Assembly: GCF_964204645.1 (NCBI RefSeq)
Contig: NC_134026.1
Coordinates: forward strand, 18,510,150-18,574,149
DNA: 64,000 bases
From: Tubulanus polymorphus
Taxonomy: Eukaryota; Animalia; Nemertea
Direction of reading: 5' to 3'
Shown: positions 12,770-61,965 of the stretch, one piece after another
How the letters are laid out: the number at the start of each line of letters is the position of its first letter
Position numbering within the stretch: position 1 is the stretch's first letter
Position numbers and translations under genes: made by a program
Notes under the pieces: generated by a model
What the model was told of the DNA's origin: nothing
Databases searched by the model: none
The model's input: the letters and a program-made list of their open reading frames with translations, nothing else

Positions 12770-15700
12770 ATGACAGCTGTCAAATTTTGGTCGGAACACT
12801 CGAAAAGCATCGGTGGTTTTTTACTGGACATTAGTGGGGTTTTATACAATTGCGGAGAAGGTTTAGGAACTGTCGTAGATGGTTCAGTTGCAGCTATTGA
12901 CAGGTGACATGCTCTTGGAATTACTTTCACTCTTTAACTTAACTGCAACTGTCTACATTTTACAAGCAAGTTTAACTTATGGAAGTGGATGTTTTGCCAA
13001 TGCGGCATTATTTTAGTAAACACTATTTTGCCAATGGCTGTATATAATTAGATATAGTAATAAAATATAACAATAAAGTCATTATATTGGGTTTAGGGTT
13101 AGGGTTTCAATAACTGTCGTTAACATTCAACGCCAGAAGTGGTCACGTCAATGTAAAGAAACAGAAACAGAAACTTAATTAGGGTCTAGTTAGTTACCTA
13201 ATCGTTGGTGGTAAGCTTTTTATAATCGGATGGGCTTATACCAACGTGAAAATATCCGATCGTAAAACTAGACCAAAGACAGGTAACTGACTAGGTTAGG
13301 GTCTAGATAGTTAGTTACCTAATCGTTGGTGGTAAGCTTTTTATAATCGGATGGGCTTATACCAACGTTAGGGATGACAAGGACCAAAACACGGTTGAAA
13401 AAAGTAACACTTCAAAAATATACTTTCTATTCACTTCAGTCCACAATTAATGGCTTAATTCACAAACTAACACAGCTACCTTTCGAAATAATCCAATTTT
13501 ATGTATGTTTCGAGTGGTTAATCAACATTATTTTGAGAAATTAATTAATTTCTCCACCAATTTCGCCATTGGCCGCCATTTCTTTGTATTGCACATGTGG
13601 CATGATAAGACAGGGGACCTACAAGGATTTATATAAAACTTCCAAGACGAAACGACAATTTTTATTTTTGATGGTTTCCAACTTATATTTCAAATCTTCG
13701 TGTTTTCCATAATAAATAATGAAATAATAAATTCTGGTAAAAGAAAAATGTGAATAAGTGTTGATTTCTTAATATTTTTTTCAATTTCGTCGTTTCGCTT
13801 CGTTAGTTTGTGCTGTTGTCCTGGCCTCAGTCCACAGGTGCCAGCACCTCCAGTAATTTTCAAAATGGCAGCTGTTGACCCGACGGAAATTTACTCTCAC
13901 TTCACGGCCGATTTGCACATGGATTAAGATCGTCAGGTGAGGTGTTATAGGTATCAGACAAACTACGAATCTGTTGTGCGTCGATTACAACAAAAATTAG
14001 ACGGATATCTTAAGAGACAATGAAATGCCAGGCAAATTACTCGTCAGTCAAATTGGCTGACGAAGATTTCATACAAAAATGACCTTCCCATTCCTGACTG
14101 TGGTTTGTGAAAATATCCGATTGTGAAACTAAACCACAGACAGGTTACTGACTAAGGGTCTAGAGGGTCCAGAGGGTTAGGGTTATGATTAGAGGGTGGG
14201 GTTTAGGGTCCGTTTTTACCCCTAGGGATAGGGTTAGGGTTAGGGTAAGGTGAGGCTATATGTAGTGAAAACCTACGGGTGGTTTTGAGTGAGCTCGGTG
14301 GTCTAGTGAAAAGACGTTAGGCTAGAAATCTGCTGGTCTGGGTTCGAATCTCGCTTTATGCTCCTATTTTCTCTAACTCTGTTCTCCACAATTTCTATGT
14401 CGCGCACCTCAGAGCGCATACGCGGAGTCAATTAGCCAATCAGAACGCGCCATCGGCAAAATAGCGTTAACAGGAATAATGCCGCATTGGCAAAATATCA
14501 CCTGCCTTAACTTTTTTCAACTCAAGTCACTTTTAAACTGCTGGAAGGTATGGAAGTAGTGGAAGCCCTGAAAAGACATCTTGAGTTCCTGATTTCCTGA
14601 ATCCTCAAGTTTATGAGTTCCCAAGCAACCCTGCAATAACGAAACGTAAACACGCTGTTTGCTTGGAAAGACCAAATCTCAGGTTCAGACTGAGACATTT
14701 GCCGACGGATACAGTTCCTAGGGTTATTAATGATGTATCTGTGTTTTGAGTGGTTGTTCTGCAATAAATCTGAGAAAAAACGTCTTGCTACTGGTACGTT
14801 TAAAAGATAATAGCAGCCGCTAGCCCCACACATGCTGGCTCCACACACAGCGAAATCACAGAATAATAATATAAAACTTCGTTTTTCCATCTAAAATTAA
14901 AACTTTTATTTTATATGACACCTACTTGTGATGTTACTGTTATAAATCCTATTATTACATCCAACTGTGTGACACTATCACAATTTGTGAAATGTCTTTT
15001 AGTATATAAAGGCGTTTCAACAAATTTGATAGTGTCACATGCTCAAGAAAGAGCATGGTAAGCATGGTAAGTAAATGTGATGAGTACCATACTTGAAAAC
15101 GAGTACATTCGTTGATAAATGCGCAGCTGGGGTACTCTGATCTTCCCTTTCAGTGCTGACTATGTAATAGGCCTACCTGATGATGCTGGAGATAATTTGA
15201 AAATTAAAAAAGCTGCGTCCAGTGTGTTGAATAATGGGCACGCTGCTTCAGTGCGTCTATATCCCGGCACGGTGTATCTTTACTTACTAATATTTCACTG
15301 TTTGACACGTCCTGCCATCTTTCAATAGAGATAAAAACTCCATCACCCATACACCGCACAGCAGTGTAGATGCACTGAAATTCAGGAGGCTATCTGAATC
15401 GAATAAGGAGTTAATCCTTTAGGCTATGTGAAACTGAAGCCCTGACTTTTTAACTGGGCCAATGGTCAGCAACAGGATTGATTGTTCAGTTTCACAAACC
15501 ACCCACTCCTTTAAGCCTATCCAAATAAAGTTGATACCAACAATTAGGTCACTAAGGAATCTCAATCCAATAATCGCCTATAAAGATTTATATTCTTTAT
15601 ATTTTCAGATTAATGTCCGCCAATGTGCCGGTTAGATTCTGCACGAATGAAACTCAATGTACAAGAAGTTATATCGTATCCAAATTGCAACGTCTCGGAT

Positions 15701-25454: not shown

Positions 25455-25745
25455 CCTTAATTATATCCAAATAAGGGCAATTTTTCTCGCAAATTGTCAC
25501 GAATATTCACGAATTTCAAAAGATACATGTAGAAATTTATCACATGGTTACACAGATAGAATTGTGTGAAAATGCTATATAAGAAATCTCTTCCAGTGAG
25601 ACTGGTAAGAATATGGCGATTGTATTTGGAAGTGTGAAATGCAAATGTAAGTGAAACTGTTACAAGTATTACTATTGTACATTTTGATTTATTAGTAGTT
25701 TACTGATCAGACGAAACCATTTTTGAACCTCTGAATAACTGAACT
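25455..25745 (+). repeat. Interspersed repeat, paralogous to about 27980-28341 (the target site of the hairpin-ended element)
   Basis: Shared blocks caaataagggcaattt, atattcacgaatt, atgtagaaattta, gaattgtgtgaaaatg, agtgagactggtaa, ctgatc(a/g)gacga. Confidence 0.7.
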
Positions 25746-27950: not shown

Positions 27951-28341
27951 TTGCCAGGAATTTGTTAGGGCAGTTATTAATTAATTTCAAATAAGGGCAA
28001 TTTCCACCAACATTTTCATATTGTGAGAAAACAAGAACATAAATACAAATTCGAAAACACGTTTGAAATCATTGCTTATTTGTCTGAATTTCTAAAGCGG
28101 ATTTTCAAACAGAAATATTCACGAATTCTCGTCCCAGTAAAAGATAAATGTAGAAATTTACTACATAGTTACAAACATTAGAATTGTGTGAAAATGTCAT
28201 ATAGAAAAATCCCTCTGTTCTAGTGAGACTGGTAAATGTATTGTAATGGTCGATGGACGTAAATATATTGCAAATGTGAGTTAAAATGTTACAAGCGTTA
28301 TTGTTGCACGTTTTGAGTTTGTAGTTTTCTGATCGGACGAT

Positions 28342-28684
28342 AGTAATAGGGGTAATGGGCTTTCAAATCAAAGGTCGAACGGTCGAGCTCATAAAAAATG
28401 AAAAATATGAAAATAATAACAATTTCTACTTGAATTAGTCGCGAAACTCATAAAAAATGAAAAATAATTCTCACACACTCGAATTTATTTTTCATTTTTG
28501 CTCGCTAGAAAAAAGTGCGAGTAAAGTGTGAGTGAAATAAATTCGAGTGTGTGAGAATTAGTTTTCATTTTTTATGAGTTTCACTCCTAATTCAAGTAGA
28601 AATTGTTATTATTTTCATATTTTTCATTTTTTAATGAACTCGACCATTCAACCTTTAACCTGAAAGCCCATTACCCCTATTACT
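28342..28684. repeat. 343-bp imperfect palindrome (terminal hairpin), left end
   Basis: agtaataggggtaatgggctttc ... gaaagcccattacccctattact; arms about 150 bp; centre ctcgc...gcgag. Confidence 0.95.
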
Positions 28685-28806
28685 CTTAAAATATTCATAT
28701 ACATGAATAAAATATATATGAATAACATATAAATCGGATAGGTTATTCAATATAAAAAGTGTGAGTGAAATAATTCATATTTAAAACATTGAATATTTAT
28801 ATTTGA

Positions 28807-29361
28807 ATGAGTTTTAATAAAAATTTTGTTATAAAAATGAAGAAAGAAGAAGAAGAACCCAACTTTAAAATCGAAATCAATGAAATCAATGAAACCAATA
28901 AATCATTTTCACAGTTTTACATTAAAAATTATGTTTCAGCAACAAATTTATTGTCCGCAAGGTATTATAAAATTGAAAATATTACTGTAATTAATCAAAT
29001 ATTATCAAATGAAACATATTTAATTACTGAACTAGTAGATACTTTTGATAATGGTGTTAAAAATCCTAAATTGTTCAATACAGTTTTAAATTTTAAAGGA
29101 ACTTTAGATGAAAACATAATTAATATTCTTAAAACTCCTTTCAATGAAAGAAATGATGATATAATACATTCAAAAGATTACAATGATTTGATTAACTTAA
29201 GAATTGAAAAAAGACAATTATATTATTTCAATTTTGATAATAAACAAATTATCTATAATGAAAATTCATCAAATATTGGAATTCAATGTGAATTAGATAA
29301 TGAAAAATCATTTAAAGATAGTGCAGTTCAATGTAATTTAGATGATGAATTTGACAGTTGA
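28807..29361 (+). CDS. Hypothetical 184-aa intronless protein of the hairpin-ended element
   Basis: Open 555-bp ATG-started frame in very AT-rich DNA; the 5' part is also open in the second TIR copy, where indels are multiples of 3; C-terminal GIQC and AVQC motifs. Confidence 0.6.
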   Translation: MSFNKNFVIKMKKEEEEPNFKIEINEINETNKSFSQFYIKNYVSATNLLSARYYKIENITVINQILSNETYLITELVDTFDNGVKNPKLFNTVLNFKGTLDENIINILKTPFNERNDDIIHSKDYNDLINLRIEKRQLYYFNFDNKQIIYNENSSNIGIQCELDNEKSFKDSAVQCNLDDEFDS

Positions 29362-31261
29362 AATGATAAACTGTTTGGCAGTTGAAATGATAAATTGTTT
29401 GATAGTTGAAATGTTAAATTGTTTGACAGTTGAAATGATAAATTTTTTGACAGTTGAAATGATAAATTGTTTGACAGTTGAAATGATAAATTGTTTAACA
29501 GTTGAAATGATAAATTGTTTGACAGTTGAAATGATAAATTGTTTGACAGTTGAAATGATAAGACAGCTGAAATGAAAAATTGTTTGACAGTTGAAATGAA
29601 AAATTGTTTGACAGTTGAAATGATAAATTGTTTGACAGTTGAAATGATAAATTGTTCGACTGTTGAAATGATAAGACAGTTGAAATGATAAATTGTTTGA
29701 CAGTTGAAATGATAAATTGTTTGACAGTTGAAATGTTAAATAGTTTGACAGTTGAAATGATAAATTGTTTGACAGTTGAAATGATAAATTGTTTGACAGT
29801 TGAAATGATAAGACAGCTGAAATGATAAATTGTTTGACAGTTGAAATGATAAATTGTTTGACAGTTGAAATGATAAATTGTTTGACAGTTGAAATGATAA
29901 GACAGCTGAAATGATAAATTGTTTGACAGTTGAAATGATAAATTGTTTGACAGTTGAAATGATAAATTGTTTGACAGTTGAAATGATAAATTGTTTGACA
30001 GTTGAAATGATAAATTGTTCGACAGTTGAAATGATAAATTGTTTGACAGTTGAAATGATAAATTGTTTGACAGTTGAAATGATAAGACAGCTGAAATGAT
30101 AAATTGTTTGACAGTTGAAATGATAAATTGTTTGACAGTTGAAATGATAAATTGTTTGACAGTTGAAATGATAAGACAGCTGAAATGATAAATTGTTTGA
30201 CAGTTGAAATGATAAATTGTTTGACAGTTGAAATGATAAATTGTTTGACAGTTGAAATGATACATTGTTCGACTGTTGAAATGATAAGACAGTTGAAATG
30301 ATAAATTGTTTTACAGTTGAAATGATAAATTGTTTGACAGTTGAAATGTTAAATTGTTTGACAGTTGAAATGATAAATTGTTTGACAGTTGAAATGATAA
30401 ATTGTTTGACAGTTGAAATGATAAATTGTTTGACAGTTGAAATGATAAGACAACTGAAATGATAAATTGTTTGACAGTTGAAATGATAAATTGTTTGACA
30501 GTTGAAATGATAAATTGTTCGACTGTTGAAATGATAAGACAGTTGAAATGATAAATTGTTTTACAGTTGAAATGATAAATTGTTTGACAGTTGAAATGTT
30601 AAATTGTTTGACAGTTGAAATGTTAAATTGTTTGACAGTTGAAATGATAAATTGTTTGACAGTTGAAATGATAAATTGTTTGACAGTTGAAATGATAAAT
30701 TGTTCGACTGTTGAAATGATAAGACAGTTGAAATGTTAAATTGTTTTACAGTTGAAATGATAAACTGTTTGGCAGTTGAAATGATAAATTGTTTGACAGT
30801 TGAAATTATAAATTGTTCGACTGTTGAAATGTTAAGACAGTTGAAATGATAAATTGTTTGTCAGTTGAAATGTTAAATTGTTTAACAGTTGAAATGTTAA
30901 ATTGTTTGACAGTTGAAATGATAATTTGTTTGACAGTTGAAATGATAAATTGTTTGACAGTTGAAATGATAAATTGTTTGACAGTTGAAATGATAAATTG
31001 TTTGACAGTTGAAATGATAAATTGTTTGACAGTTGAAATGATAAATTGTTTGACAGTTGAAATGATAAATTGTTTGACAGTTGAAATGATAAATTGTTCG
31101 ACAGTTGAAATGATAAATTGTTTGACAGTTGAAATGATAAATTGTTTGACAGTTGAAATGATAAATTGTTTGACAGTTGAAATGATAAATTGTTTGACAG
31201 TTGAAATGATAAATTGTTTGACAGTTGAAATGATAAATTGTTTGACAGTTGAAATGATAAA
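29350..31261 (+). repeat. 24-bp tandem array (gacagttgaaatgataaattgttt)n with interspersed 16-bp variants, about 80 units
   Basis: Directly visible. Confidence 0.98.
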
Positions 31262-31629
31262 AAAGTTGTCTGAGCATGGCTGCACCATTTCCAGAATCAA
31301 ATTGTTAAATCCGATGTAATAAAATGTTTTTATGGTGTTGATCTTAGTGCCGACATCATGATTTGATAAAAAATTAAAAGATATTTACGAGAAAGGAGAG
31401 TTTGGTAGTCGGTCGGCCACATGTATATTTTTGAAAAAAAGTTATTATACCCACAATTTTGAAAAAGGGTCGGTAGGAAATTATATTTTATTCTAAACAT
31501 GATTATTTGAAACGACGAAATATAGGGTCGGTCGGGCCCGAGAAGCAGGGTTTTCTTTTGGTTCTGGTCTTATGTGGTAAATTTTCAGTTTCACAACTTA
31601 ACTGTGGGGTCAATACAATAATAATCGTC

Positions 31630-32321
31630 AGTAATAGGGGTAATGGGCTTTCAAATCAAAGGTCGAACGGTCGAGCTCATAAAAAATGAAAAATATGAAA
31701 ATAATAACAATTTCTACTTGAATTAGTCGCGAAACTCATAGAAAATGATAAATAATTCTCACACACTCGAATTTTTTTTTCATTTTTTGCTCGCTAGAAA
31801 AAAGTGCGAGTAAAGTGTGAGTGAAATAAATTCGAGTGTGTGAGAATTATTTTTCATTTTTTATGAGTTTCACTCCTAATTCAAGTAGAAATTGTTATTA
31901 TTTTCATATTTTTCATTTTTTAATGAACTCGACCATTCAACCTTTAACCTGAAAGCCCATTACCCCTATTACTCTTAAAATATTCATATACATGAATAAA
32001 ATATATATGAATAACATATAAATCGGATAGATTATTCAATATAAAAGTGTGAGTGAAATAATTCATATCTAAAACATTGAATATTTATATTTGAATGAGT
32101 TTTAATAAAAATTGTGTTATAAAAATGAAGAAAGAAGAAGAACCCAACTTTAAAATCGAAATCAATGAAACCAATAAATCATTTTCACAGTTTTACATCA
32201 AAAATTATATTTCAGCAACAAATTTAGTGTCCGCAAGGTATTATAAAATTGAAAATATTACTGTTATTAATCAAATATTATCAAATGAAACATATTTAAT
32301 TACTGAACTAGTAGATACTTT
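31630..32321 (+). repeat. Second terminal repeat copy (hairpin 31630-31973 plus truncated ORF copy)
   Basis: Near-identical to 28342-29045; identity stops at gtagatacttt. Confidence 0.95.
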
Positions 32322-32367
32322 AGATCAAAAAGATTTAAATAAAAAAACAATAAGTTACTTTATCTAA
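32095..32367 (+). pseudogene. Truncated copy of the 184-aa ORF
   Basis: Matches 28807-29045 up to ELVDT, then runs into a fold-back junction. Confidence 0.75.
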
Positions 32368-32827
32368 TACTAGCTTATTTAACTTATTGTTTTTTTATTT
32401 AAATCTTTTTGATTTGTATTCGCGCTATTGGTTAACAAGAATTGACTAGAATTCAAATAGATTTAACAAAAAATTCAATAACTTTAACTGTTAGTATCAC
32501 TCTTGTATTATTTCATTGTTTCTCTTATTGAATAAGCCAACTAACTAATATCACTCTTCTATTATGCCAGTCAAATGTAAAGAATTTACAATATCATACT
32601 TGAATGAATTAAAACATAAATTACTTCTGTTACTTCATTTTCAGAAATAAAGCATAATATGTATTTAATACCATTAATACGTATTTAATACCATTAATAC
32701 GTATTTGATACGTATTTAATACATTGATACCTCAACCCTCCTTTTTTTAACGTAAATATAATTTACTCATTTTCATACATTTCAACTAATATATTTTATA
32801 TTTTCAGCTAATTTAACAGTCGATTTC

Positions 32828-33133
32828 TTATTTTGATTCATATAATTTTTCATCAAGTTCGTGAAGATACATGTGATTCCTTAATGATTTTTTATTTTTA
32901 TATCTTTTATTGCATATTTCACAGCATTTAATATTATTCAATCTATCTAAAATATATTTCATATTTTCTATTAATTCAGTGTATCTAATTTTACAGCAAT
33001 CATAGAATTCTAACAACTGTTTTATAGTATAAACTGAGAATGAAAATAAACCTGAAATCATAATAATTGATTTAGTATTCTGTTGATTTTTATATATTAG
33101 ATGTAATATTTCTAATACCTTATTTTCACTCAT
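32828..33133 (-). CDS. Small intronless protein with one C2H2 zinc finger
   Basis: CEICNKRYKNKKSLRNHMYLH fits C-x2-C-x3-Y-x5-L-x2-H-x3-H; first ATG gives MSENKV. Confidence 0.65.
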   Translation of the reverse strand: MSENKVLEILHLIYKNQQNTKSIIMISGLFSFSVYTIKQLLEFYDCCKIRYTELIENMKYILDRLNNIKCCEICNKRYKNKKSLRNHMYLHELDEKLYESK

Positions 33134-33180
33134 TTTTATAGACAAAATATATAGAATAAATTAAATTAAAAGATGTTGTT

Positions 33181-33399
33181 TTAATCCTCCAAATCATTTA
33201 AATCATTAACTTTTTTATTCTTTTTATTTCTGTGATTGTTTCCATTTAACTTCTTTAATTTCTTGCTTAATTTTATATTTTCATTAATCAAATCCTTACT
33301 GATATTTTCATAATAAAAGAAAAGCGCAGCCAATATTAATCCACCTGCTACTAAATAATGTTTCAAATCACTTTTCCCAGTTGGGATGAAACCATCCAT
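33181..33399 (-). CDS. 72-aa predicted single-pass membrane protein with basic tail
   Basis: Hydrophobic YLVAGGLILAALFFYY followed by a Lys/Asn-rich coiled-coil-like tail; ATG preceded by taa; tightly co-oriented with the zinc-finger ORF. Confidence 0.55.
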   Translation of the reverse strand: MDGFIPTGKSDLKHYLVAGGLILAALFFYYENISKDLINENIKLSKKLKKLNGNNHRNKKNKKVNDLNDLED

Positions 33400-33515
33400 T
33401 TATTTAAGAGAAAAATTAAACAGTTTGCTAGTTTGCTAGTTTTTAATTAAATATTTTATAATCATTTTAAAAATATTAAACTTTTAAATGATTAAATCAA
33501 ATAACAATTAAATTT

Positions 33516-35190
33516 ACAGCCAAACAATTTAACATTTCAACTGTCAAAGAATTTATCATTTCAACTGTCAAAGAATTTATCATTTCAACTGTCAAACAAT
33601 TCATCATTTCAACTGTCAAACAATTTATCACTTCAACTGTCAAACAATTTATCATTTCAACTGTCAAACAATTTATCATTTCAACTGTCAAACAATTTAT
33701 CATTTCAACTGTTAAACAATTTACCATTTCAACAGTCGAACAATTTATCATTTCAACTGTCGAACAATTTATCATTTCAACTGTCAAACAATTTATCATT
33801 TCAACTGTCAAACAATTTATCATTTTAACTGTCAAACAATTTATCATTTCAACCGTCAAACAATTTATCATTTCAACTGTCGAACAATTTATCATTTCAA
33901 CTGTCAAACAATTTATCATTTCAACTGTCAAACAATTTATCATTTCAACTGTCAAACAATTTATCATTTCAACTGTCAAAAAATTTAACATTTCAACTCT
34001 CTTATCATTTCAACAGTCGAACAATTTATCATTTCAACTGTCAAACAATTTATCATTTCAACTGTCAAACAATTTATCATTTCAGCTGTCTTATCATTTC
34101 AACTGCCAAACAATTTATCATTTCAACTGTCAAACAATTTATCATTTCAACTGTAAAACAATTTATCATTTCAACTGTCTTATCATTTCAACAGTCGAAC
34201 AATGTATCATTTCAGCTGTCTTATCATTTCAACTGTCAAACAATTTATCATTTCAACTGTCAAACAATTTATCATTTCAACTGTCAAACAATTTATCATT
34301 TCACCTTTCAAACAATTTATCATTTCAACTGTCAAACAATTTATCATTTCAGCTGTCTTATCATTTCAACTGCCAAACAATTCATCATTTCAACAGTCGA
34401 ACAATTCATCATTTCAACTGTCAAACAATTTATCATTTCAACTGTCAAACAATTTAACATTTCAACTGTTAAACAATTTATCATTTCAACTGTCAAACAA
34501 TTTATCATTTCAACTGTCAAACAATTTAACATTTCAACTGTCAAACAATTTATCATTTCAACTGTCTTATCATTTCAACAGTCGAACAATTTATCATTTC
34601 AGCTGTCTTATCATTTCAACTGTCAAACAATTTATCATTTCAACTGTCAAACAATTTATCATTTCAACTGTCAAACAATTTATCATTTCAGCTGTCTTAT
34701 CATTTCAACTGTCAAACAATTTATCATTTCAACTGTCAAACAATTTATCATTTCAACTGTCAAACAATTTATCATTTCAGCTGTCTTATCATTTCAACTG
34801 CCAAACAATTCATCATTTCAACAGTCGAACAATTTATCATTTCAACTGTCAAACAATTTATCATTTCAACTGTCAAACAATTTAACATTTCAACTGTTAA
34901 ACAATTTATCATTTCAACTGTCAAACAATTTATCATTTCAACTGTCAAACAATTTAACATTTCAACTGTCAAACAATTTATCATTTCAACTGTCTTATCA
35001 TTTCAACAGTCGAACAATTTATCATTTCAACTGTCAAACAATTTATCATTTCAACTGCCAAACAGTTTATCATTTCAACTGTCAAACAATTTAACATTTC
35101 AACTGTCTTATCATTTCAACAGTCGAACAATTTATCATTTCAACTGTCAAACAATTTATCAATTCAACTGTCAAACAATTTATCATTTCA
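33516..35190 (-). repeat. 24-bp tandem array, inverted continuation of 29350-31261, about 70 units
   Basis: (aaacaatttatcatttcaactgtc)n with the same 16-bp and cgactg/ggcag variants. Confidence 0.98.
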
Positions 35191-35410
35191 CGATGCTGAC
35201 GAGTAGTGACATGACAGAGAGACAAACAACGATTAACAACATAGCTATTTATATAACACAGATTCAAGACAGGTTGAGACATGGAAAATGATACAAAAAC
35301 AAAGGTGACGAGTAGTGACATGACAGAGAGACAAACAACGATTAACACACTCTGACGCAGACAAACGGACAATAAGTAATTAGATGGAGACATAAAACAA
35401 TAAAGAAATA

Positions 35411-36431
35411 CAAAGTAGGATATAAAGAGTTCAAATAATGTAAGAACCCATTCACATTAAAATCGGGGGAAACTAAACAAAGAATATCATCAACGTAACG
35501 TCGCCAAATTTTGGGTCTACTTTCGGTGTAAAGAGGAAGAATTTCACTTTCGACATGTTCCAAAAATAAACCAGCTAGAACAGGGGAAAGTGGGTTCCCC
35601 ATAGCCATACCAAAAATCTGTTCAAAAAAGTTAGAACCAAATTGAAAATATAAGTTTTTTGTACAAAGTTCAATTAAGTCCAAAAGACAATCAACCGGTA
35701 TATCAAAATGAAAATCTAAAGTAGGTAACTTTCTCCTAAGAAAGTCCAAAGTAGGTTCTAAAGGAACATTAGTGAATAAGCTAGCAACATCAAAAGATAT
35801 AAATTTATCATGCCCAGGAATAACATTTTTTAAACATTCCAATAAATCCTAAATGGGCATTCGAAAATGAGCCAAGAACCGGTGAAAGAGTTTTTGCCAA
35901 ATATTTAGATAGTCCATAAGATGGTGAATCACAATTGGAGATGATCGGTCGAAGCGGAATATCCTTCTTATGAATTTTTGGAAGTCCGTAGAGATAAGGG
36001 AGCGACGGTAACCGAGATTTAAATTTGTCCAGCGTTTTCGAAACATTGTCATCTTTAAAATTCGCAATAATGTCCGACAGTCCTTTATTGAATTTATTTT
36101 GCATCATTTTTAACGGGTTCGATTTGAGTTTTTTGTAAACATCCGGATTGTTAAGTAGATCTTGCATTTTAGATTCATACGATTCAATGTCCATGAGCAC
36201 AATTTTTCCTCCTTTGTCTGATTTAGAGATGCGGATGGTTTTAATTCTCCGAAGTTCACTGAGGGCAGATCTAAACCGGCGCGGGAAAAATTCATTGTAC
36301 TGAATCTTTAGTTGGTCTGAAATAGATTCTAGGTTCATGTATATGAAACCGTAATTGATGCTGTTGCAATTCTGGTATTCGAGTTGGCGTACAAAATCCA
36401 ATAGGTGTCGTTTCTGGTGCGGTAAAGCAAC
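35411..36431 (-). mobile_element. Penelope-like element, N-terminal RT half (decayed)
   Basis: KSDKGGKIVLMD, LYGLPKIHK, LRPIIS, SFDVASLFTNVP, GMAMGNPLSP, WRRYVDD. Confidence 0.92.
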
Positions 36432-37890
36432 TTTCCTCTTTGCAATCTTCTTACAAGATCTTGAGAAATATTTGCAAGACCACGGTTTTCTAGGATTAGA
36501 TAACTTACACTTACTATCTACCTCAGAGTTTGTGAGGGGGTTGGGTCATAAAATCAAAATGTTTCTACTCCTGTATGCTGATTACACCATTATATTAGCG
36601 GAGTCGAAAGAGCAACTACAATTAGGTCTCGATGCCATGTCTCAGTATTGTATTGATTTTAAACTATCAATAAATGTCAAGAAATGCAACATTATGGTAT
36701 TCAGTCGCGGAAGAAAGAGAAACCCAGAACCATTATTTAAATTATGTAATCAGACAGTTGATACAGTGCCCGAATATTGTTACTTGGGTGTACTTTTTTC
36801 TTCAAACGGTAGTTTTAAAGCCCATATTAAGTGGGCGGCAAACAAAGGAAGAAAAGCGATGTTTTCTTTGTTACGGCAAGGTAGAAAAGTTTGTCTGTCC
36901 CAACACTTATACACTTACGTATTTGGTCGTGCCAGTTATAACGTACGGTTGTGAAGTCTGGGGGTTTGAAGACTTAGATGAGATTGATGCAGCGCAAACC
37001 AAATTTTACAAATGTCTATTAAAGATGAAAAATTCTACTCCATCAGTTATGGTATTAGGTGAAGTCGGTGAGCTCCCGGTGTCAGTGTCTATCCACTGTC
37101 GTATGGTTTGTTATTGGGCTAAAATGAAAAACGAAATTACGAAGAACAAATGGAATGTTATTTTTTATATGATTTTAGCTGAACTTACTGAGAAAGGGTA
37201 TTTACAATCACCGTGGTTTTTAAAAGTTTAAGGTATTATTTCCCAATGCAATCTCCTTCACGCGTTCAATCAACTAAATGTGTCGGAAAGTTTTATTAAA
37301 AGAACTGTGCAAGGTGTCCTCAAAACTGCGTACATTAATTACTTTTGGAACGAACTGCATCATGAAAAAAGGTGTTGCTTTTATAAACTTGCCAAAAAAG
37401 AATTTTGTTTTGAAACGTATCTAAACTTGCCAGCCGATTTAGCTCTTCCTATTTGTTTTTTCAGAACATCAAATCTCTGTATGGATTCAATAAACTGTAG
37501 ACTTTCTGATTTACCCGATTGCCTTCGTTCTTGCTCTTTATGTCATAATATCATTATCTTCGACGAGTATCATCTATTTGCAGAATGTTCAATTTTAGAC
37601 GAGTATAGACAACTAGTTTGGAACGGCCCCATCTCTTTAAACTTATCTAAATTTGGAACCCTATTAAGTAGGTGTAACAACAAATCTAGAAGATTAGGAA
37701 TTTTTTGTAAAACGATTGTGAAACTTATCAACCCTCGTCGTCATTTTAGAACAAAATTTTGTCAAATTTTATTGATTATTCTATATTTTACGTTATGTTA
37801 TACAATTGTAAATACTTCTTGATGTCCCTCTGTATACCTCTCGTTGAGGTGATGAGTGTAAATAAATTTCAATTTCAATTTCAATTTCAA
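36432..37890 (+). mobile_element. 5'-truncated RTE-X-like LINE with (tttcaa)n tail
   Basis: LLLYADY, INVKKCNIMVF, YCYLGV, YGCEVWG, C-terminal CSLC...DEYHLFAEC; aataaa then tttcaa repeats at 37867-37890. Confidence 0.82.
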
Positions 37891-37993: not shown

Positions 37994-39207
37994 TTGTCGA
38001 ATAAACACTATAATCCGTGTATACTGTAGATAAATGAAGAAATCCCACACTTCGAATTTAAAATTATACGATCAAATTTATTATAATGAAACCACAACGT
38101 TTCGGCTGTTGACTAACAGCCATCATCAGGTGGAATGACCAGAAAAACAAGTAACAAAGCATATAAACTCACAGGATCTAAAATAGAAGCAGTGTGTCAA
38201 AACTAAAGATAAACAGACCAAGCAATAAAACATCAAGGGGTACCGTGGACCACAGAAATTCTAAACAGTTCAGAGTAAAAACAAATTATGTAACTAAGTG
38301 AAGTGGACTGAAGAGGGTGGCGATAACTGAGTGACACATAGTGACATTAACCCAAATCTAATAAAGAATTGATGTGTCTGGATAATAATTGGTTATGTGG
38401 AGAAAAACCAGTATTTAAATTAGTAGATAAATTGGATTTCGAAAGTTTACATGTAAGGGCTGATTCCACTATGTGTCTCTTATAAATATCTTAATTTACA
38501 AGGATAAATAAGTTTCGAATTCTGAAAGTCAAATTGGTGATTGGTTGTAAAGACATGATTTGCTATTCCACTCTCAGGCTTTTGGTTTCGGATATCTATT
38601 TTGTGTTCTTTAATACGCTGGCTAAGATTACGTCCCGTTTCGCCGATGTACATCATATTATAATCTTTACATGGTATCTTATAGACCCCGGACTCAATTA
38701 GCTCACTGTTGGGTTTATTTTTGGTTAAAACATCAGTGAGTTTGTTATTATACTGAAAGACTAATCTAGTGTCGATGGTGCTTAGTGTGGATTTAAAGCG
38801 TTCCAAAGTAGGTAAATACGGGATTATAATATTCTTTTGAGCTCTGCGTTTTGTGGTCAGGTCATTACGTCCAAAGTGAGAAATTCGGGCTTTGAAATAA
38901 GCTTTGTTCAAAATTTTGTCTGGATAGGCTAGTTTCTTGAGAGCAGTTCTTATATGTTTGATTTCTTTATCTAAAAACATTTGATCACAAATATACGTAG
39001 AGCTCGAAGAAATAATCCTTGGGCTATTCCAATTTTGATGTTCAAATGAGTAAATGAGAAAAAATGAAGATAAGCTTCAGCATTAGTCGGTTTCCTATAT
39101 ACAGAGAATTTCAAATTTGTTTTGAAATTATGAATGAGTACATCGAGAAACGGGATGCAATTATTTTCTTCCCACTCAAAAGTGAAGTTCAAAGTAGGAT
39201 ATAAAGA
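37994..39207 (-). mobile_element. Penelope-like element, RT thumb + GIY-YIG endonuclease + pseudo-LTR
   Basis: IPFLDV, VYRKPT, SGVYKIPC...YIGETGR; near-identical to 50499-51660. Confidence 0.92.
38092..38133 (-). ncRNA. Minimal type I hammerhead ribozyme in Penelope pLTR
   Basis: Minus strand CCAC-CUGAUGA-U-GGCUGUU-AGUC-AACAGCC-GAAAC-GUU-GUGG. Confidence 0.82.
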
Positions 39208-40523: not shown

Positions 40524-40817
40524 TTGTTGTTGCCACGTTAGGACGAAAAATAGCGCGATAAAACGAAAATTACCGCGTTAAAACGAGAAAAAGTCGCTTT
40601 AATCCGCGAAAAAACGAACTTTTTCGTTTTATTGCCACGTTAAAACGAAAAATGGCGCGATAAAACGAAAAATTAACGCAATGAAAATGATTTCGTTACA
40701 AAGTACAAATGCCGTTTTCTCAATTTTTCGTTTTAATGCGGCAATAAAACGAAAAAGTTCGTATTATCGCGCATTAAAACGACTTTTTCTCGTTTTATCG
40801 CGCAATAAAACGACTTA
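40524..40817. repeat. cg/taaaacg-motif-rich repeat related to 26417-26720
   Basis: Shares gaaaattacc..gttaaaacgagaaa; ends aaaacgactta. Confidence 0.5.
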
Positions 40818-41620: not shown

Positions 41621-44600
41621 TGTTGTTCCTCGTGCAAATGAATCAATCCACTAAAATCACTTGTCTTCGTTTGCAATGCGTAGTTTATTCTTCTTTAAAA
41701 TGAAACGTCACGATTGACTGCAAGTCAAACAAAAATAAAGCATTTACTAAAGATTGCATTAGGTGCTGCCATCTATGGACATCATAAGGCACTAAAAATC
41801 AAAATCAAAACTTTAAGAAAGGCTCTAAAGGCAAACTCAAACGCTTAGTACGAAATATAACTACTCAGAAAAAATTGCAAATGTTAAAGATAATATATGT
41901 GAGTCGTAAAACGTCTTACCAAAACATATGACCATCTAAAAACTTCTAAAAGATGTACACTAAAAACTAAAAGAAACAATTGATCCAAATTGCCACGAAG
42001 CAAAAAACCTCACCACTCCCGCACACCAGGTGGCGCCACACCACCACCCAGGCCAAACACTAAAACAAGGGAAGTATTTGCCGCAACACACCAGCCCCCC
42101 AATAGGGCAAGGCCCTATGACATCCTTACATAACCGGTCAAATGCTTCGACGACTCCAAACATACAGCATATAATGACTTATTTCACTAAACACAACCAT
42201 ATGAACGCAACTCAAACACTAAAAAACCTCCCTAAAGGGGGTAGAAACCTTGCATCGATTATACTAAACTCGATCATTACATAACTACTAAAATACAATA
42301 TAGACTACATGTATAAAAAATTTAAAAAAACAGTGCACTTGTTTTAATAGGTAGCCTAGAGCAAATCGATTGTCCTAAAATGCGAGTTATTGCACCAACA
42401 TAGTTAAAATAACAGATTAAATGCCAGGTACGATCGCGCAAAGTCATTTTGACCGAACTTGAAGCAGCGCAATATATTCTTCACACCATCTTTTCCAGAA
42501 CAACGATGCCAAGTATTGAACCTGACGCCACCTACGCTTCGCATACCAATCTTCTTTCGAGAAGACGCCGGTCGGGAAATCAGATTTCAGATTCATGAGC
42601 AGAAGATGATTTGGAGTGATGGGTCTCGGATCGTTAGGGTTGTTCATGTCCAGGTCGTACAGCGGACGATTGTTGAGTATCGACTCCGCTTCGCAAAAAA
42701 CTGTTCAGGGCTTTCGATTGCCCGCGCAACAAGTGGAACAGAATTTTGCGTACCAATCTGATCAATCTTTCCTAGATGCCGCCGAAATGTGAGGCTAGCG
42801 GAGGGTTGAAACTCCACTCGAAATGCTTTTCGAGGCAAAACTGTGATATCTTATCCAGACTCTCCAACGCACGCTTCATGTCGGCACTGGCACCGACTAG
42901 GTTGGTGCCGTTATGAGACCGCATTTTTTCAATTGCCCCACGCCTAGCTATAAAACGCCTTATAGCGATGATACATGAATCCGTATCTAACGAATTCGCT
43001 ACTTCCAGGTGAACAGCCCTGCTGGCCATACACGTAAAAACGACGCCATAGCGCTTCGCAACGTTGCGCCCAGCTTTTACATCAAAGGGGCCGAAGTAAT
43101 CCACGCCGGTGTTTGAGAACGGTGGTTTGTCGGCCGCTAAACGCTCTTTCGGTTAGTCGGCCATCTTTTATTCGACCTTATCGCCACGATATTTCCGGCA
43201 ATTGACGCACTTTGCTATTATCGATTTGATTAGACCGGCGCAATGAGTAATCCAGAACCTTTGCCTCACATATCGCAGGATATAATTCTTGCCCATGTGC
43301 CCTACAGCTCTGTGCGCATTTTTCCAATATGAGCAACGATATGCGGGAGGTTTTTGATAATACAATTTGGTGTTTCTGGTCGAAAGGCACTATTGCGCGT
43401 TCAAGACGACCACCGACCCGAATCACGTCATCGTTCAGGTATACGTCGAGAACTTGCAGCTGGCTAGCTCGTTTCACCCGTGCATCGGTTTTCAGCTGCT
43501 CGTGCTCGGAGCTGAAGGTCTTCCGCTGCGAATGCTTTACTAGGAGCAGCTCTGCCTCCTCTATGACGGATCGATTTAGGAACGCGGTTGTCGCTCCGGC
43601 GGGTTTCGTCAGGCCAAGTTTTCTTTCCTCGGCCGACTTACGGAGTCTTTTCGCAAACAGTAGGAACCATGCTTCAGACGCCACCAATCGGAGTAATGGT
43701 AAATGAGCTTATCAATAGGCTGCGTAATACGAACGACCGAAGTAGCAGCGACGGGTCTTTTTAATTCACTACTGTCGACTAGACTTCGATCCACGATGTT
43801 GAGCGGCCAATCCGATTGGTCTTTGATAAGGAATTCTGGTCCGTTAAACCAGATCTCATCCTTTACTGGGGACTTGCTTGGTTGCAAACCTTTTGAGACG
43901 AAGTTTGCTGGATTGAGCTTTGTGTCGATGTATCGCCACTGAGAAACTTGACTGCCGTCTCTTATAACGTTTACTCGGTTGGCCACGAATGTTTGGTATC
44001 TTGCCGTATCGTTTGCGATATATCTTAGGACACTCTTGCTCTCGGTCCAGTAAAAGACTTCGTCGAACTCAATATCTAGTTCTCTGGCTACCATACTGTG
44101 CAGGCAAACTGCAACGGTGAGCTCCATGCGTGCAGTGAGCTCCATGCGTGCAGTGAGCTCCATGCGTGGTATGGTTGTCTTCTTCAGAGGCGCAACCCTA
44201 GATTTCGAGATTACCAAGCTACACGTGACGTTGCCGGACGGGTCAGCCACTCGCGAATAACAAACAACGCCATACTCAGTTTTACTTGCGTCGGTGAAGT
44301 TGGTACTTTAGCGCATCTGATCGTTGAGGGGCGAGGCATCGTGGAATTGAGACTAGTTCCAAGGGGGGTAATTCCGTCGGCCCAGGCTTCGAATCGCCTT
44401 TGTTTGTCTCGGGTGATGGCTTCGTCCCATCCGATGCTGTCTCTGCACAATTCTTGCAGCAGGATTTTGGCTGGTAGAATATACGGCGACACTAGCCCTA
44501 AGGAGTCGTAAACCGAACTAACGACTGACAAAATACCCCGACGAGTGGCAGGTTTGTTTCGATCCAAGCTAATGTTAAATGTAAGGCTGTCGTTTTCGAC

Positions 44601-45989
44601 GTCCCAGGTGACGCCTAGGGCGCGCTCTGTTGGCAGTCGATTATTGTCCAAGTCTAAATTGACGCTTGGTGACCATTCTTCGTGTGAGAACGATTTCATG
44701 ACGACGCGACTATTACTTATTATTTTGTGAAGGTGGAAACCGCCTTCCTGACATATGTATATAATGTCTCCCAGGTTGCGGATGGCTTCTTCGGTATTGA
44801 GAGACTTCTGGCAGTCATCTACGTAGAACGAACGCTTAATTCCTTCAACAGCTTCGGGTCTTCTTTCGACGTCTCCATTCTCGGCGGTACGACTTAAGGC
44901 TAGATTAGCGCATGTAGACGATGAGACACTGCCGAAAAGGTGTACTTTCATGCGGTAACAGGTGGGTTCAGAATTGAGGTCTCCGTCTTTCCACCACAGG
45001 CACCTAAGATAATCTGCGTCTTCTTTAGGCACTAAGACTTGGTGGAATATTGCCTTGATGTCCGCTGTGACTGCTACTCGATTTTGCCTGAATCTGTGGA
45101 GAACACCGACGAGGGCATTAGTCAAATCAGGTCACTGCATGAGTGCAACATTTAGAGAAACTCCATGGTACTTCGCCGTGCAATCGAAAACCATTCTTAT
45201 CTTGTTCTTCTTTGGGTGATACACCCCGTGGTGCGGTAGGTACCAAACGTCTGTCTCTTTGTTTAATTCGCAATCAGGCACGATTTATCCTTTTTCGATA
45301 ACTGACTGCATGAAAGTCATGTAATCCTCTCGGAACTTCGTGTCAGCGTAAAGCCTTCTCTTTAGGCTATTCAAACGAATCATGGCCATCGACTTGTTGC
45401 ACGGCAACTTCACGTCCTTCAGAAGCAGAGGTATCTCATAATGGCCGTTCACTAGCTCGACTTTGCCACTTATCTTATCCATAAAGGCTTTGTCCTCTTG
45501 CGACCACTGCTTCTTGTCTTCAATTATTCTTTCTGGAAAGTCGTGATTGAACATTTCTTTCAGGCGACTATCGATTTCGCGCAACTGCTGGTTAGCCGAT
45601 ATCGAACTCATCATGTGAGCCTGATCCATGGACTGACGTGTTTTTCTGACGATTCCCCAGGTGATCCAGCCGAGTTTAGTATTGACCGCTTAAGGTCCGC
45701 CGCTGGGGCCGGTGATCGATTGGACTGGCAGGAACGCGTCGGGAACATTGCTTCAACAACGACTGGTTTTCGGATCTTGGCTGGTGGGCTGATGCCTTCA
45801 AGGTGTGGCCAACTTCTGATTTCCTCCTCTGTGACCATGTATTCTTCTGTCACTGGTATTTTACTGATAGAGAACTTAGGTGGGAGTCTTATCGAGTCGT
45901 GGTTTTCTGCAAATGACATTTCATTTTCATTGCTGTTTTCATCAGACGATGGACAGCTCAGGAGTGAATTTAATGTCTGAGACAGAAAG
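41621..45989 (-). mobile_element. Bel/Pao LTR retrotransposon, 5'-truncated and decayed (RT, RNase H, integrase, 3' LTR 42088-41621)
   Basis: WYLPHHGV, TADIKAIFHQV, FYVDD, SKSRVAPLK-TIPRMEL, VGGRL, DYFGPF, VFTCMASRAVHLE, PITPNHLL; purine-rich ggggggctggtg before an LTR with tgttg...caaca ends. Confidence 0.93.
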
Positions 45990-45992
45990 TAA

Positions 45993-46528
45993 GGGGCCGT
46001 GCATAAAGTATGTACGCTTGACTTCCGGGTATTTTTAACCCCCCCTCCCCCCTTGTACGCTCATCGTACGTTTTTTTATAACCCCCCTTGCGTACATACT
46101 TATAGGGGTAACCCCCCCCCCCCCCCCCCCCAGTAAAACAGAATTTTCAGGAATAATGGTTTAAAGAAGGCAAAATCCACCCTGATTCAACAGAGTTCCT
46201 GCTGACGTTGATCAACGATCTTTCATGGCGACGAAATGAAAGACTGAAAGTGGGGAATTCCCGAGATCCAAATATAATATATTGAATGCAACAAACCCAG
46301 GGAGACCGGTTTCGCAATTAAGGCAGTGTTTGCTATACATTAAAGGAAGACAGGTTTACCCACAGAGATATGTTTCGTGCACAAAGTACGTACTATTAAT
46401 ATTAACCCTCCCCCCTTGGAAAGTATGTACGTTTTTAGCTGACCCCTCCCCTCCCCTTGTACGCTTTTGTACGGATTTTAAGAACACCCCACCCCCCCTA
46501 CGGACGTACGTACTTTATGCACGGCCCC
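45993..46528. mobile_element. PIF/Harbinger (Tourist-like) MITE
   Basis: TAA|ggggccgtgcataaagta ... tactttatgcacggcccc|TAA. Confidence 0.88.
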
Positions 46529-49020: not shown

Positions 49021-50498
49021 GCTCTCAAGTCAGGTTGAAATAGACATTAGGCAGTAATCTATTTGTGGGATTTTTGGGACTATTTCATGCCTTCCTCAGC
49101 AAATTTATTTTTACTGAGACTGCTGTCTGAATCACAGCAGGGGCTCCAGGACGGAACGGGGGTTCCCCCGGCTCTTTTCTGACCAAGTGCCCTTTTGAAA
49201 ATCACGTGTGAAAAATTCCACCCGACATTGATCTATGACGAAAATCCCCAGTACTTCTTAAAGCAATTATATGCACAAAAATTGCATAAAAATGTGCCTG
49301 ATTTTTCAAAATGCCGGTACGTTCTCCACAAGTAGTAAAGCAGGCCTACCCTTGTAAAAGCCTATGAAGTGAATCCCCCCTTTTGATCAGCCTCGATCAG
49401 CCCTGGGGCTGGTATCAGAGTTTCAGTAGAGGCCTACCGGTACCTAATTGGTGGTATGCTTTTATAGGCCTAATGGATGGGCTACCATCCCTGTACAAAG
49501 ATTATAAAAGTGTAAAAATGATTATCTGTTAATCAAATGTCATACATTGTTGACAATGGATTAACAGATTATCATTTTTACAAGCCCTGTAGTCTGAATA
49601 AACCCTTACTTTTATTACCATTTTACACTGATTGCTAAAAAGTGTTGGTGACTGAATTTTGAATGTTTTTTTATTATTTCTAGCATGAAAATGTAGGCCC
49701 TTTTTATAAACCCTCATTCTTAAGTGTTGTGTTAAGCTTAGCGTACATCGATAAAATGACTGGAAACAACTAGTCTCTATTGAGCGAGTACCACGCGCAC
49801 ATCGAAAATCTAGTAAAAACCAGCAACTGCATGGCTCATGCCGGTCGCTTGTTGCGCGTGGCTCTAGAGGGGCTTGAGGGAACATTTGCGATTGCCGATG
49901 ATATTATCGTGGCCCAGGCCTTGAAGTTGGGAAAATCAGACCTGTAGCAAAAACATTTCAAAATGCTCTGGGTTGAGCATTTTACCAAAGACCATCAGCT
50001 TTTTAGAATCCCAATTTGCCTCCGTAATCTTAAAAGCCCATGGCAAAAATTGTGACACATATATATATATTACATGTATTTACAGTAAGGGATACATTAT
50101 GGATCAGTCACTCTGAATTGGTAAGTAAGTCATCACATCACATTAATCGTACATACATTCAGAGTCACTATTATATGACTGAGAGTCTAAATCTAAATCC
50201 TGTTTATAATTTCGCGCACCATATGGACGAATATTGGGCTGCCTCTCGCGACAGCCCGAAACCAACCGCTGTTTGACGACTGGTGTTGCATCAAATTCCT
50301 CAATGGGAACTCTTGGCCAAAATTCGTACTAACGATTCCATGATTTCAGGGGCAAGGCAATGCCGCCAGTCTTCCAGATTACACTTTGTTACGGAAAAGC
50401 GGTATAGTCGATATCATTCTTATCAACCGGAGAATATTTGTATATTTCTGTGAGATACTAGGATACATTATATACATTCGAATACAAGGCTAGGAATT

Positions 50499-52185
50499 TG
50501 TCGAATAAACACTATAATCCGTGTAAACTGTAGATAAATGAAGAAATCCCACACTTCGAATTTGAAATTATACGATCAAATTTATTATAATGAAACCACA
50601 ACGTTTCAGCTGTTGACTAACAGCCATCATCAGGTGGAATGACCAGAAAAACAAGTAACAAAGCATATAAACTCACAGGATCTAAAATAGAAGCAGTGTG
50701 TCAAAACTAAAGATAAACAGACCAAGCAATAAAACATCAAGGGGTACCGTGGAAACCACAGCAATTCTAAACAGTTCAGAGTAAAAACAAATTATGTAAC
50801 TAAGTGAAGTGGACTGAAGAGGGTGGCGATAACAGAGTGACACATAGTGACATTAACCCAAATCTAATAAAGAATTGATGTAGTAAATTGGATTTCGAAA
50901 GTTTACATATAAGGGCTGATTCCACTATGTGTCTCTTATGAATATCTTTACAAGGATAAATTAGTTTCGAATACTGAAAGTCAAATTGGTGATTGGTTGT
51001 AAAGACATGATTCGCTATTCCACTCTCAGGCTTTTGGTTGCGGATATCTATTTTGTGTTCTTTAATACCCTGACTGAGATTACGTCCCGTTTCGCCGATG
51101 TACATTATATTACAGTCTTTACATGGTATCTTATAGACCCCGGACTCAATTAGCTCACTGTTGGGTTTATTTTTGGTTAAAACATTAGTGAGTTTGTAAT
51201 TATACTGAAAGACTAATCTAGTGTCGATGGTGCTTAATGTGGATTTAAAGCGTTCCAAAGTAGGTAAATACGGGATTATAATATTCTTTTGAGCTCTGCG
51301 TTTTGTGGTCAGGTCATTACGTCCAAAGTGAGAAATTCGGGCTTTGAAATAAGCTTTGTTCAAAATTTTGTCTGGATAGGCTAGTTTCTTGAGAGCAGTT
51401 CTTATATGTTTGATTTCTTTATCTAAAAACATTTGATCACAAATACGTAGAGCTCGAAGAAATATTCCTTGGGCTATTCCAATTTTGATGTTCAAAGGAG
51501 TAAATGAGAAAAAATGAAGATAAGCTTCAGCGTTAGTCGGTTTTCTATATACAGAGAATTTCAAATTTGTTTTGAAATTATGAATGAGTACATCGAGAAA
51601 CGGGATGCAATTATTTTCTTCCCACTCAAAAGTGAAATTCAAAGTAGGATATAAAGAGTTCAAATAATGTAAGAATCCATTCACATTAAAATCGGGGGAA
51701 ACTAAAAGAATATCATCAACGTAACGTCGCCAAATTTTGGGTCTACTTTCAGTGTAAAGAGGAAGAATTTCACTTTCGACATGTTCCAAAAATAAACCAG
51801 CAAGAACAGGGGAAAGTGGGTTACCCATAGCCATACCAAAAATCTGTTCAAAAAAGTTAGAACCAAATTGAAAATATAAGTTTTTTGTACAAAGTTCAAT
51901 TAAGTCCAAAAGACAATCACCCGGTATATCAAAATGAAAATCTAAAGTAGGTAACTTTTTCCTAAGAAAGTCCAAAGTAGGTTCTAAAGGAACATAAGTG
52001 AATAAGCTAGCAACATCAAAAGATATATATTTATCATGCCCAGGAATAACATTTTTTAAACATTCCTATAAGTCCTGGTTATGGCGTAAATGGGCATTCG
52101 AAAATGAGCCAAGAACCGGTGAAAGAGTTTTAGCCAAATATTTAGATAGTCTATAGGATGGTGAATCACAATTGGAGATGATCAG
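50499..52185 (-). mobile_element. Penelope-like element (RT + GIY-YIG, 391-aa ORF 51975-50800), 5'-truncated, with pLTR
   Basis: GMAMGNPLSP, RYVDD, SGVYKIPCKDC..YIGETGR, NH..HQFD, RHIVESALI. Confidence 0.95.
50596..50637 (-). ncRNA. Minimal type I hammerhead ribozyme in Penelope pLTR (G-U at base of stem II)
   Basis: CCAC-CUGAUGA-U-GGCUGUU-AGUC-AACAGCU-GAAAC-GUU-GUGG. Confidence 0.72.
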
Positions 52186-52211
52186 TTAGGGACCGTACCA
52201 GGCTTGGCATA

Positions 52212-52326
52212 ACTGTTTAGAATTGCTGTGGTTTCCACGGTACCCCTTGATGTTTTTTTGCTTGGTCTGTTTATCTTTAGTTTTGACACACTGCTTCCAT
52301 TTTAGATCCTGTGAGTTTATATGCTT
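52212..52326 (+). repeat. Inverted partial pLTR at the Penelope 5' junction
   Basis: Reverse complement of about 50660-50776. Confidence 0.85.
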
Positions 52327-61822: not shown

Positions 61823-61965
61823 TTTAGGGTTTTCTGTTTCTTCACAGAAAACCCTATTGAAATTCGCGTGATTATTAGGGTTTTCTGTTACATCACAGAA
61901 AACCCTATTGAGATTCGCGTGTTTCTTATTATTATTATTATTATTATTATTTTTTTTTTTCCACA
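61823..61965 (+). mobile_element. Probable Helentron/HINE-like 5' end with duplicated stem-loop
   Basis: Two tandem copies of tagggttttctg-N8-cagaaaaccctattg, followed by (att)n. Confidence 0.45.

Follow-up and report, generated by a model that had tools for sequence, protein, structure and literature searches.

Polinton/Maverick elements of vertebrates end in (AG)3 or (AGT)2 and carry terminal inverted repeats (TIRs) of 46–1,447 bp, with target-site duplications (TSDs) of 6 bp (PMC8097293), and at the C. elegans eri-6/7 locus ~700-bp Polinton TIRs have been made direct repeats by inversion (10.1101/2024.01.15.575659). Transpovirons are ~7 kb long with 22% GC, TIRs of 380–520 nt and a central tandem repeat, and carry a zinc-finger gene and a small membrane-protein gene (PMC7031253); they also have terminator hairpins. 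Foldback elements have long modular TIRs, internal tandem repeats and rearranged copies, and inversions are typical of them (PMC4079207). Here we analyse a window of 64,000 nucleotides from the nemertean Tubulanus polymorphus (contig NC_134026.1, positions 18,510,150 to 18,574,149; coordinates below are those of the window), which at 28342–35190 contains a ~6.5-kb AT-rich element with palindromic ends. The element belongs to a real, multi-copy, virus-like family that looks undescribed, and on balance we take it to be a non-autonomous Polinton/Maverick-type element mobilised in trans.

A palindrome-ended element likely split by an inversion

Two terminal repeats bound the element and now lie as direct repeats on the plus strand, a 708-bp copy at 28342–29049, which includes the 5′ half of a 184-codon open reading frame (ORF184), and a 696-bp copy at 31630–32325. 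They are 96.3% identical over 709 alignment columns, differing by 12 substitutions and 14 gap columns. The outer part of each is an imperfect palindrome, delimited by alignment and folding at 28342–28684 (343 bp) and, from a read-supported terminus, at 31630–31973 (344 bp); the two palindromes agree in 338 of 344 columns (98%; copy 2 one base short), and the same 10 arm-versus-arm differences occur in both. A single strand of the palindrome is predicted to fold at −139.5 kcal/mol (z = −28; equalled by 0 of 100 shuffles), and it is in the sense of this predicted fold of single strands that the element may be called hairpin-ended. The element terminus, AGTAAT, has five of the six bases of the (AGT)2 end motif.

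The hexamer GACGAT, host-derived, stands before repeat 1 (28336–28341, plus strand), and its exact reverse complement, ATCGTC, stands before repeat 2 (31624–31629, reading GACGAT in minus-strand orientation). The two correspond over 6 bp and no further, with a chance probability of ~2e-4 at host composition, and mark two putative TSD copies. Part of 31262–33500 occurs in four sequencing runs of one study; reads from three of these were placed on 31228–33540, as were reads from X5, a raw Illumina run with the same species label from another study (1,934 million letters read and 9,791 reads placed, 6,300 of them 90–95% alike). Loose read ends at 31262 and 31562, together with GC content (0.345 over 31262–31629), mark 31262–31623 as host DNA outside the element, probably its inverted right flank. 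Positions 31262–31562 belong to a different dispersed host repeat; in the reads, its other copies have another sequence before 31262, as expected at a breakpoint. Each half of the element runs into a tandem array, and the two arrays share one 24-bp unit, 17-bp variants of it and uncommon higher-order patterns: ~83 units at 29350–31261 on the plus strand, ending at breakpoint 1, and ~73 units in the opposite orientation at 33521–35190 on the minus strand, ending at breakpoint 2. Both arrays, 3,582 bp in total, end against non-array DNA in an identical 12-mer. A reading of the array as a coding repeat was rejected, since the 17-bp units shift the frame.

Flipping ~31262–35190 would restore one element with AG...CT ends and TIRs of hundreds of base pairs, an inverted orientation that holds only under the inversion model. 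The two halves add up to 6,481 bp, with a GC content of 0.20–0.30 in the element parts versus 0.36–0.37 in the flanks. Two further states are common to both window repeats and rare elsewhere: a base at 31807/28518 absent from 294 of 307 reads (96%), and an extra base at 32024–32025 absent from ~183 of 210 reads (87%), with the proviso that X5 is another sample whose allele shares may differ from those of the assembled individual. Sharing of both rare states indicates that the two repeats come from one element or from one rare sublineage and, together with the 6-bp complement, makes it likely that a local inversion broke up what had been one element. Ectopic recombination as the cause of that inversion was rejected, the two breakpoint sides having no shared homology.

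A dispersed family with a constant terminus

In X5, 1,361 reads extend leftwards beyond 31630 and 262 beyond 31629, and their flanks agree at only 0.35, which identifies 31630 as a true terminus joined to many different flanks. All 30 bins of the placed stretch are covered in X5, at a depth of ~2,250x in the terminal bin, 290–500x over 32008–32319 (290–340x over 32086–32319) and 40–125x in the inner arm that carries the zinc-finger and membrane ORFs. Conditional on an assumed genome of 0.3–2 Gb, these depths would correspond to ~6–130 arm copies and 400–2,600 ends. Depth drops from ~337x to 75x at 32320–32325, the end of repeat 2, so that more than half of the repeat copies lead elsewhere and there is room for longer or differently built members; at the same place a loose end in run X1 leads into the continuation of ORF184.

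The ends themselves vary. One variant has only the outer 57 bp in common with the window copy and diverges at 31686 (914 reads) and, in mirror position, at 31917 (286 reads); its loose ends are reverse complementary over 23 letters by eye, so this variant likely has its own palindrome. Another (31649; 247 reads) retains the 10 outermost bases and departs from the window copy over the 9 that follow, and 104 X5 reads skip 31731–31871, giving a shortened palindrome. The family is therefore dispersed and multi-copy, with at least three end variants and a constant terminus.

Six loose ends are listed for X5, the smallest with 247 reads, and none of them falls at 31973, the palindrome's inner boundary. 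Flipped ends would accordingly number fewer than 247 reads per position among those listed, versus 1,623 reads at the terminus, and solo palindromes or flipped ends are at most a minority, so that the palindromes appear to be fixed in one orientation. The first-pass annotation, made from the window alone, had held that palindromes standing alone amid unrelated flanks would mark an ordinary miniature inverted-repeat transposable element (MITE) caught in a local duplication; the inner continuation is constant in the reads, the terminus is dispersed and none of the X5 loose ends listed shows diverse flanks at the inner end, and on these grounds the element is not an ordinary MITE.

Three small genes and no enzymes

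Three small AT-rich ORFs lie between the ends. ORF184 (28807–29361, plus strand) probably starts at Met11 (28837; 174 amino acids) and would encode an acidic orphan protein, and its stop codon falls inside the first array unit. ZF101 (32828–33133, minus strand; 101 amino acids) has one C2H2 zinc finger at E = 1.9e-4, below the Pfam cut-off, and a 72-amino-acid ORF (33181–33399, minus strand) has one predicted membrane segment (hydrophobic segment, Kyte–Doolittle (KD) 1.48) and a basic tail. Repeat 2 carries a truncated, 90-amino-acid copy of ORF184 (32095–32367, plus strand) that ends in a 90-bp internal hairpin (32324–32413; z = −11). This hairpin is located where repeat 2 ends and the ORFs converge, and is predicted to act as a bidirectional terminator; no intact ORF occupies the minus strand in 32400–32830.

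Several weak signs suggest that these ORFs are really coding. Within the 64-kb window the motif TATAAAAATG is confined to three places, before Met11 in each of the two ORF184 copies and before ZF101 (3 found versus 0.74 expected; 3 reached in 4 of 100 shuffles), and the indels that distinguish the ORF184 copies measure 3 and 9 nt. Among the segregating places listed in the two right-arm ORFs, six of eight are at third codon positions (p ~0.02), with six of the eight places clustered. The repeats, the complementary hexamers, the total length of ~6.5 kb, the ~3.6-kb array and the three ORFs had all been described in the first-pass annotation and hold up here in detail; the internal hairpin, the truncated ORF184 copy and the common breakpoint 12-mer had been overlooked.

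Two side observations concern the end of ORF184. Its C terminus (29279–29361) contains two 13-residue repeats with IQCE/VQCN motifs, which may resemble LC8 dynein light chain motifs. The last codons also overlap the first array unit and resemble it, as though the gene end had given rise to the array.

No gene for an integrase, polymerase, capsid, helicase or Rep protein was found in the element, in keeping with its earlier description as non-autonomous. Outside the arrays no ORF is long enough for a protein-primed polymerase B (pPolB), and neither a PolB motif nor a Pfam match was seen; the element ORFs include no rve integrase and no Rep/HUH or SF3 helicase gene, and the ORF list, Pfam and PHROGs gave no capsid, ATPase or protease module. 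No ORF is of helicase size, the only Walker-A-like string lying in the 72-amino-acid ORF, which is too short for it to matter.

Homology searches were equally blank. For ORF184 there were 0 matches among 88 candidates and 0 among 1.84 billion representatives, 0 in the PDB, 0 in 34 stretches of viral contigs and 0 in 62 of prokaryote genomes, and its best Atlas score was only 0.85. ZF101 had no homologue among 4 and among 10 candidates, and the 72-amino-acid ORF had no candidate in one search and 0 of 69 in another; the near-length searches among these covered proteins of similar length and not fused forms. PHROGs gave E values of 0.06 or worse, single-sequence folds reached unusable pLDDT (predicted local distance difference test) values of 29 and 43, and BFVD yielded 0 matches at E ≤ 0.001. 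At the nucleotide level, the terminal 18-mer was absent from viral contigs, and the 11 metagenome loci that matched it did so over 18–21 nt only and were taken as chance; the array 30-mer occurred in neither viral contigs nor prokaryote genomes, and Rfam gave 0. Clusters of Nucleocytoviricota occupy ranks 1, 3 and 4 of the Atlas neighbours of ZF101 (score 0.91; 106–117 of 256 features shared); these follow the generic C2H2 motif and serve as a lead only. Within this scope, no ORF has a detectable homologue beyond that motif.

Comparison with Polinton/Maverick elements

The element resembles Polinton/Maverick elements in its AG...CT ends near (AGT)2, TIRs of hundreds of base pairs and apparent 6-bp TSD (PMC8097293, PMC10748475), as well as in its intronless AT-rich ORFs and dispersed copies. 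It differs in being 6.5 kb rather than 13–25 kb long, in having none of the core genes, in TIRs that begin with a 343-bp palindrome and in a central tandem array that makes up more than half of its length. Of the hallmarks cited in the first-pass annotation, those of the ends and TIRs hold up, with inverted TIRs under the inversion model; the protein searches gave no Polinton or virus homology. With eri-6/7 the locus shares ~700-bp TIRs present as direct repeats following inversion, here a likely one (10.1101/2024.01.15.575659); the eri-6/7 TIRs are tied to elements with pPolB and integrase elsewhere in the genome, and no such link is seen here. Polisuvirus genomes have a palindromic repeat and small repeat arrays marked in a figure (10.64898/2026.10.13.758929), so such features are not without precedent in the group.

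A Polinton/Maverick-type origin would work as follows. An rve-type integrase, supplied in trans, would recognise the conserved terminal decamer and leave a 6-bp duplication, and the helper's protein-primed polymerase would copy the element. Each palindrome could fold on the displaced single strand and so provide, locally at the 3′ end, an origin that is double-stranded and does not need the far end, and protein priming at the folded palindrome would keep one palindrome orientation. The three ORFs would be accessory cargo with short AT-rich promoters and transcripts predicted to end at the internal hairpin. An inversion later than the insertion, its two breaks falling in the array and in the flanking host DNA, would have turned the inverted repeats into direct ones. 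Folded ends had been thought unlike a protein-primed Maverick; the apparently fixed palindrome orientation fits protein priming, and does so better than had been supposed.

Several observations weigh against this origin. Support for the TSD comes from one locus only: the complement there is exact, but a left-flank paralogue, an old host repeat at 25502–25714 that is 74% identical to 28114–28340 and covers five of the six bases of GACGAT at 28336–28341, shows no continuation in the right flank as proposed, where 1,390 of 2,000 shuffles scored no worse (0 of 2,000 for the positive control), and this speaks against a clean reading of the hexamers as a TSD. The two breakpoints share no homology, no helper element was seen, and the protein searches gave 0 matches linking the sequence to a Polinton or a virus. 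The argument from fixed polarity is an upper bound drawn from the loose ends listed, and the codon-position test covers only the places listed, most of them clustered. Palindromic TIRs go unmentioned in the Maverick/Polinton passages searched, the string 'palindrom' being absent from the available text of PMC8097293, PMC10748475, PMC12220804, PMC8547959, 10.1101/2022.07.12.499685 and 10.1101/2023.10.06.561300. Among the titles and beginnings of abstracts listed by full-text searches there was no gene-poor Polinton derivative with long palindromic TIRs and no transpoviron-like element in animal chromosomes.

Similarity of the left-flank paralogue stops exactly at the insertion point, a stop that a simple insertion model does not explain. 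Non-autonomous Polinton entries may exist in Repbase, Dfam or the original Polinton papers of 2006–2007.

Alternative origins

Transpovirons of Mimiviridae and pacmanvirus share with the element its size, GC content, TIRs, central repeat, zinc-finger and membrane genes and gene-end hairpin (PMC7031253, PMC11788076). A satellite of the transpoviron kind, dependent on a large DNA virus or a polintovirus and lodged in an animal-type genome, is an unlikely origin that nonetheless deserves serious weight. Such a satellite would be copied and transcribed by helper machinery, would be borne in particles through its membrane and zinc-finger proteins and would borrow an integrase; its 343-nt ends would fold on themselves around a central array, with genes under virus-type promoters and a hairpin terminator. 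Here the 6.5-kb length, the GC content of 0.20–0.30, the TIRs, the central array, the zinc-finger and membrane ORFs and the hairpin between convergent ORFs all agree, as do the placement of TATAAAAATG and the Nucleocytoviricota clusters among the Atlas neighbours of ZF101, but one gene start, present in two copies, accounts for two of the three motif matches and the Atlas matches share few features around a generic motif. A ~7-kb AT-rich body with TIRs and a central tandem repeat is thus present, while the zinc-finger and small membrane-protein genes are matched by type only, with no homology to transpovirons found. The core transpoviron helicase has no counterpart, there being no ORF of helicase size, and for this reason we do not class the element as a transpoviron. 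It further differs in its fewer genes, far longer array and many integrations, with an apparent TSD, in a cellular genome of animal type, transpovirons integrating in virus genomes and not in animal chromosomes in the texts available. The virophages mavirus and EMALE are likewise bounded by TIRs, with a 5–6-bp TSD in mavirus (PMC8547959, PMC3671162), a stand-alone C2H2 gene (MV04) and common AT-rich upstream motifs; unlike them, the element has no capsid, ATPase, protease, integrase or polymerase, and its context is not protist-type.

The remaining explanations fare less well. We regard as improbable a non-autonomous cut-and-paste TIR transposon, foldback-like or of another DDE group, that carries orphan cargo. 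Foldback elements such as Tetris are non-autonomous, with long structured TIRs, internal tandem repeats and rearranged or inverted copies (PMC4079207), and the shortened palindromes in 104 X5 reads would suit them. Their TSDs, and those by which foldback or Mutator-like elements are recognised, are however 8–10 bp long and their tandem repeats lie inside the TIRs, whereas here the match is 6 bp, the array is central and outside the TIRs, and ORFs are present; captured host fragments would not be expected to take the form of compact intronless AT-rich ORFs with a common start context. More doubtful still is a head-to-tail placement of two truncated family members of independent origin, with the 6-bp complement arising by chance and no inversion. 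The family is abundant, the paralogue test does not join the flanks and the region is heavily rearranged, with Penelope pieces in swapped order; against this stand the low chance of the hexamer, the two rare states common to both repeats, and the complementary halves, both broken inside the array at an identical 12-mer. Least probable, and very much so, is an integrated defective genome of a hairpin-ended virus (parvovirus-, bidnavirus- or poxvirus-like) replicating by self-priming and hairpin transfer. By inspection, the folded 3′ palindrome would form a primer–template junction, and the arm mismatches are kept in both copies. Hairpin transfer usually yields flip and flop ends, and integrating precisely, in many copies and at a single terminal base, is not known to be typical of hairpin-ended viruses. 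Flip-flop termini are described for pox- and asfarviruses (PMC11788076), but no flip/flop end is among the X5 loose ends listed, and the element has no Rep/HUH or SF3 helicase gene.

Genomic context

By its sequence content the window is transposon-dense DNA of animal type. A Penelope-like element with reverse transcriptase (RT) and GIY-YIG domains occurs at 35405–36545, 37994–39207 and 50498–52326; the pieces at 35–39 kb are in swapped order relative to the copy at 50–52 kb, with a 24–31-bp overlap and, between them, a fragment of a LINE RT. Palindromic repeats that are small, unrelated and MITE-like lie at 40574–40802, 49511–49582, 14968–15039 and 61825–61907. The stretches 43178–46060, 56673–57284, 60129–61007 and 62979–64000 hold BEL/Pao fragments, parts of a piggyBac-like transposase and of a gypsy-type integrase, and a 31-bp satellite.

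Implications

The family bears on how Polinton/Maverick elements replicate and on whether they have satellites. A high-copy family that carries three small genes and no enzymes, and keeps palindromic ends across its variants, may indicate the smallest set of cis signals that replication and integration need. Screens that need core genes or a 15-kb span between TIRs, such as the coral screen, would miss such a family. If the element is only a deleted Maverick, the family is new but ordinary; if the transpoviron parallel is true, it would extend satellites of the giant-virus type to animal genomes and represent a class of satellite so far undescribed in animal chromosomes.

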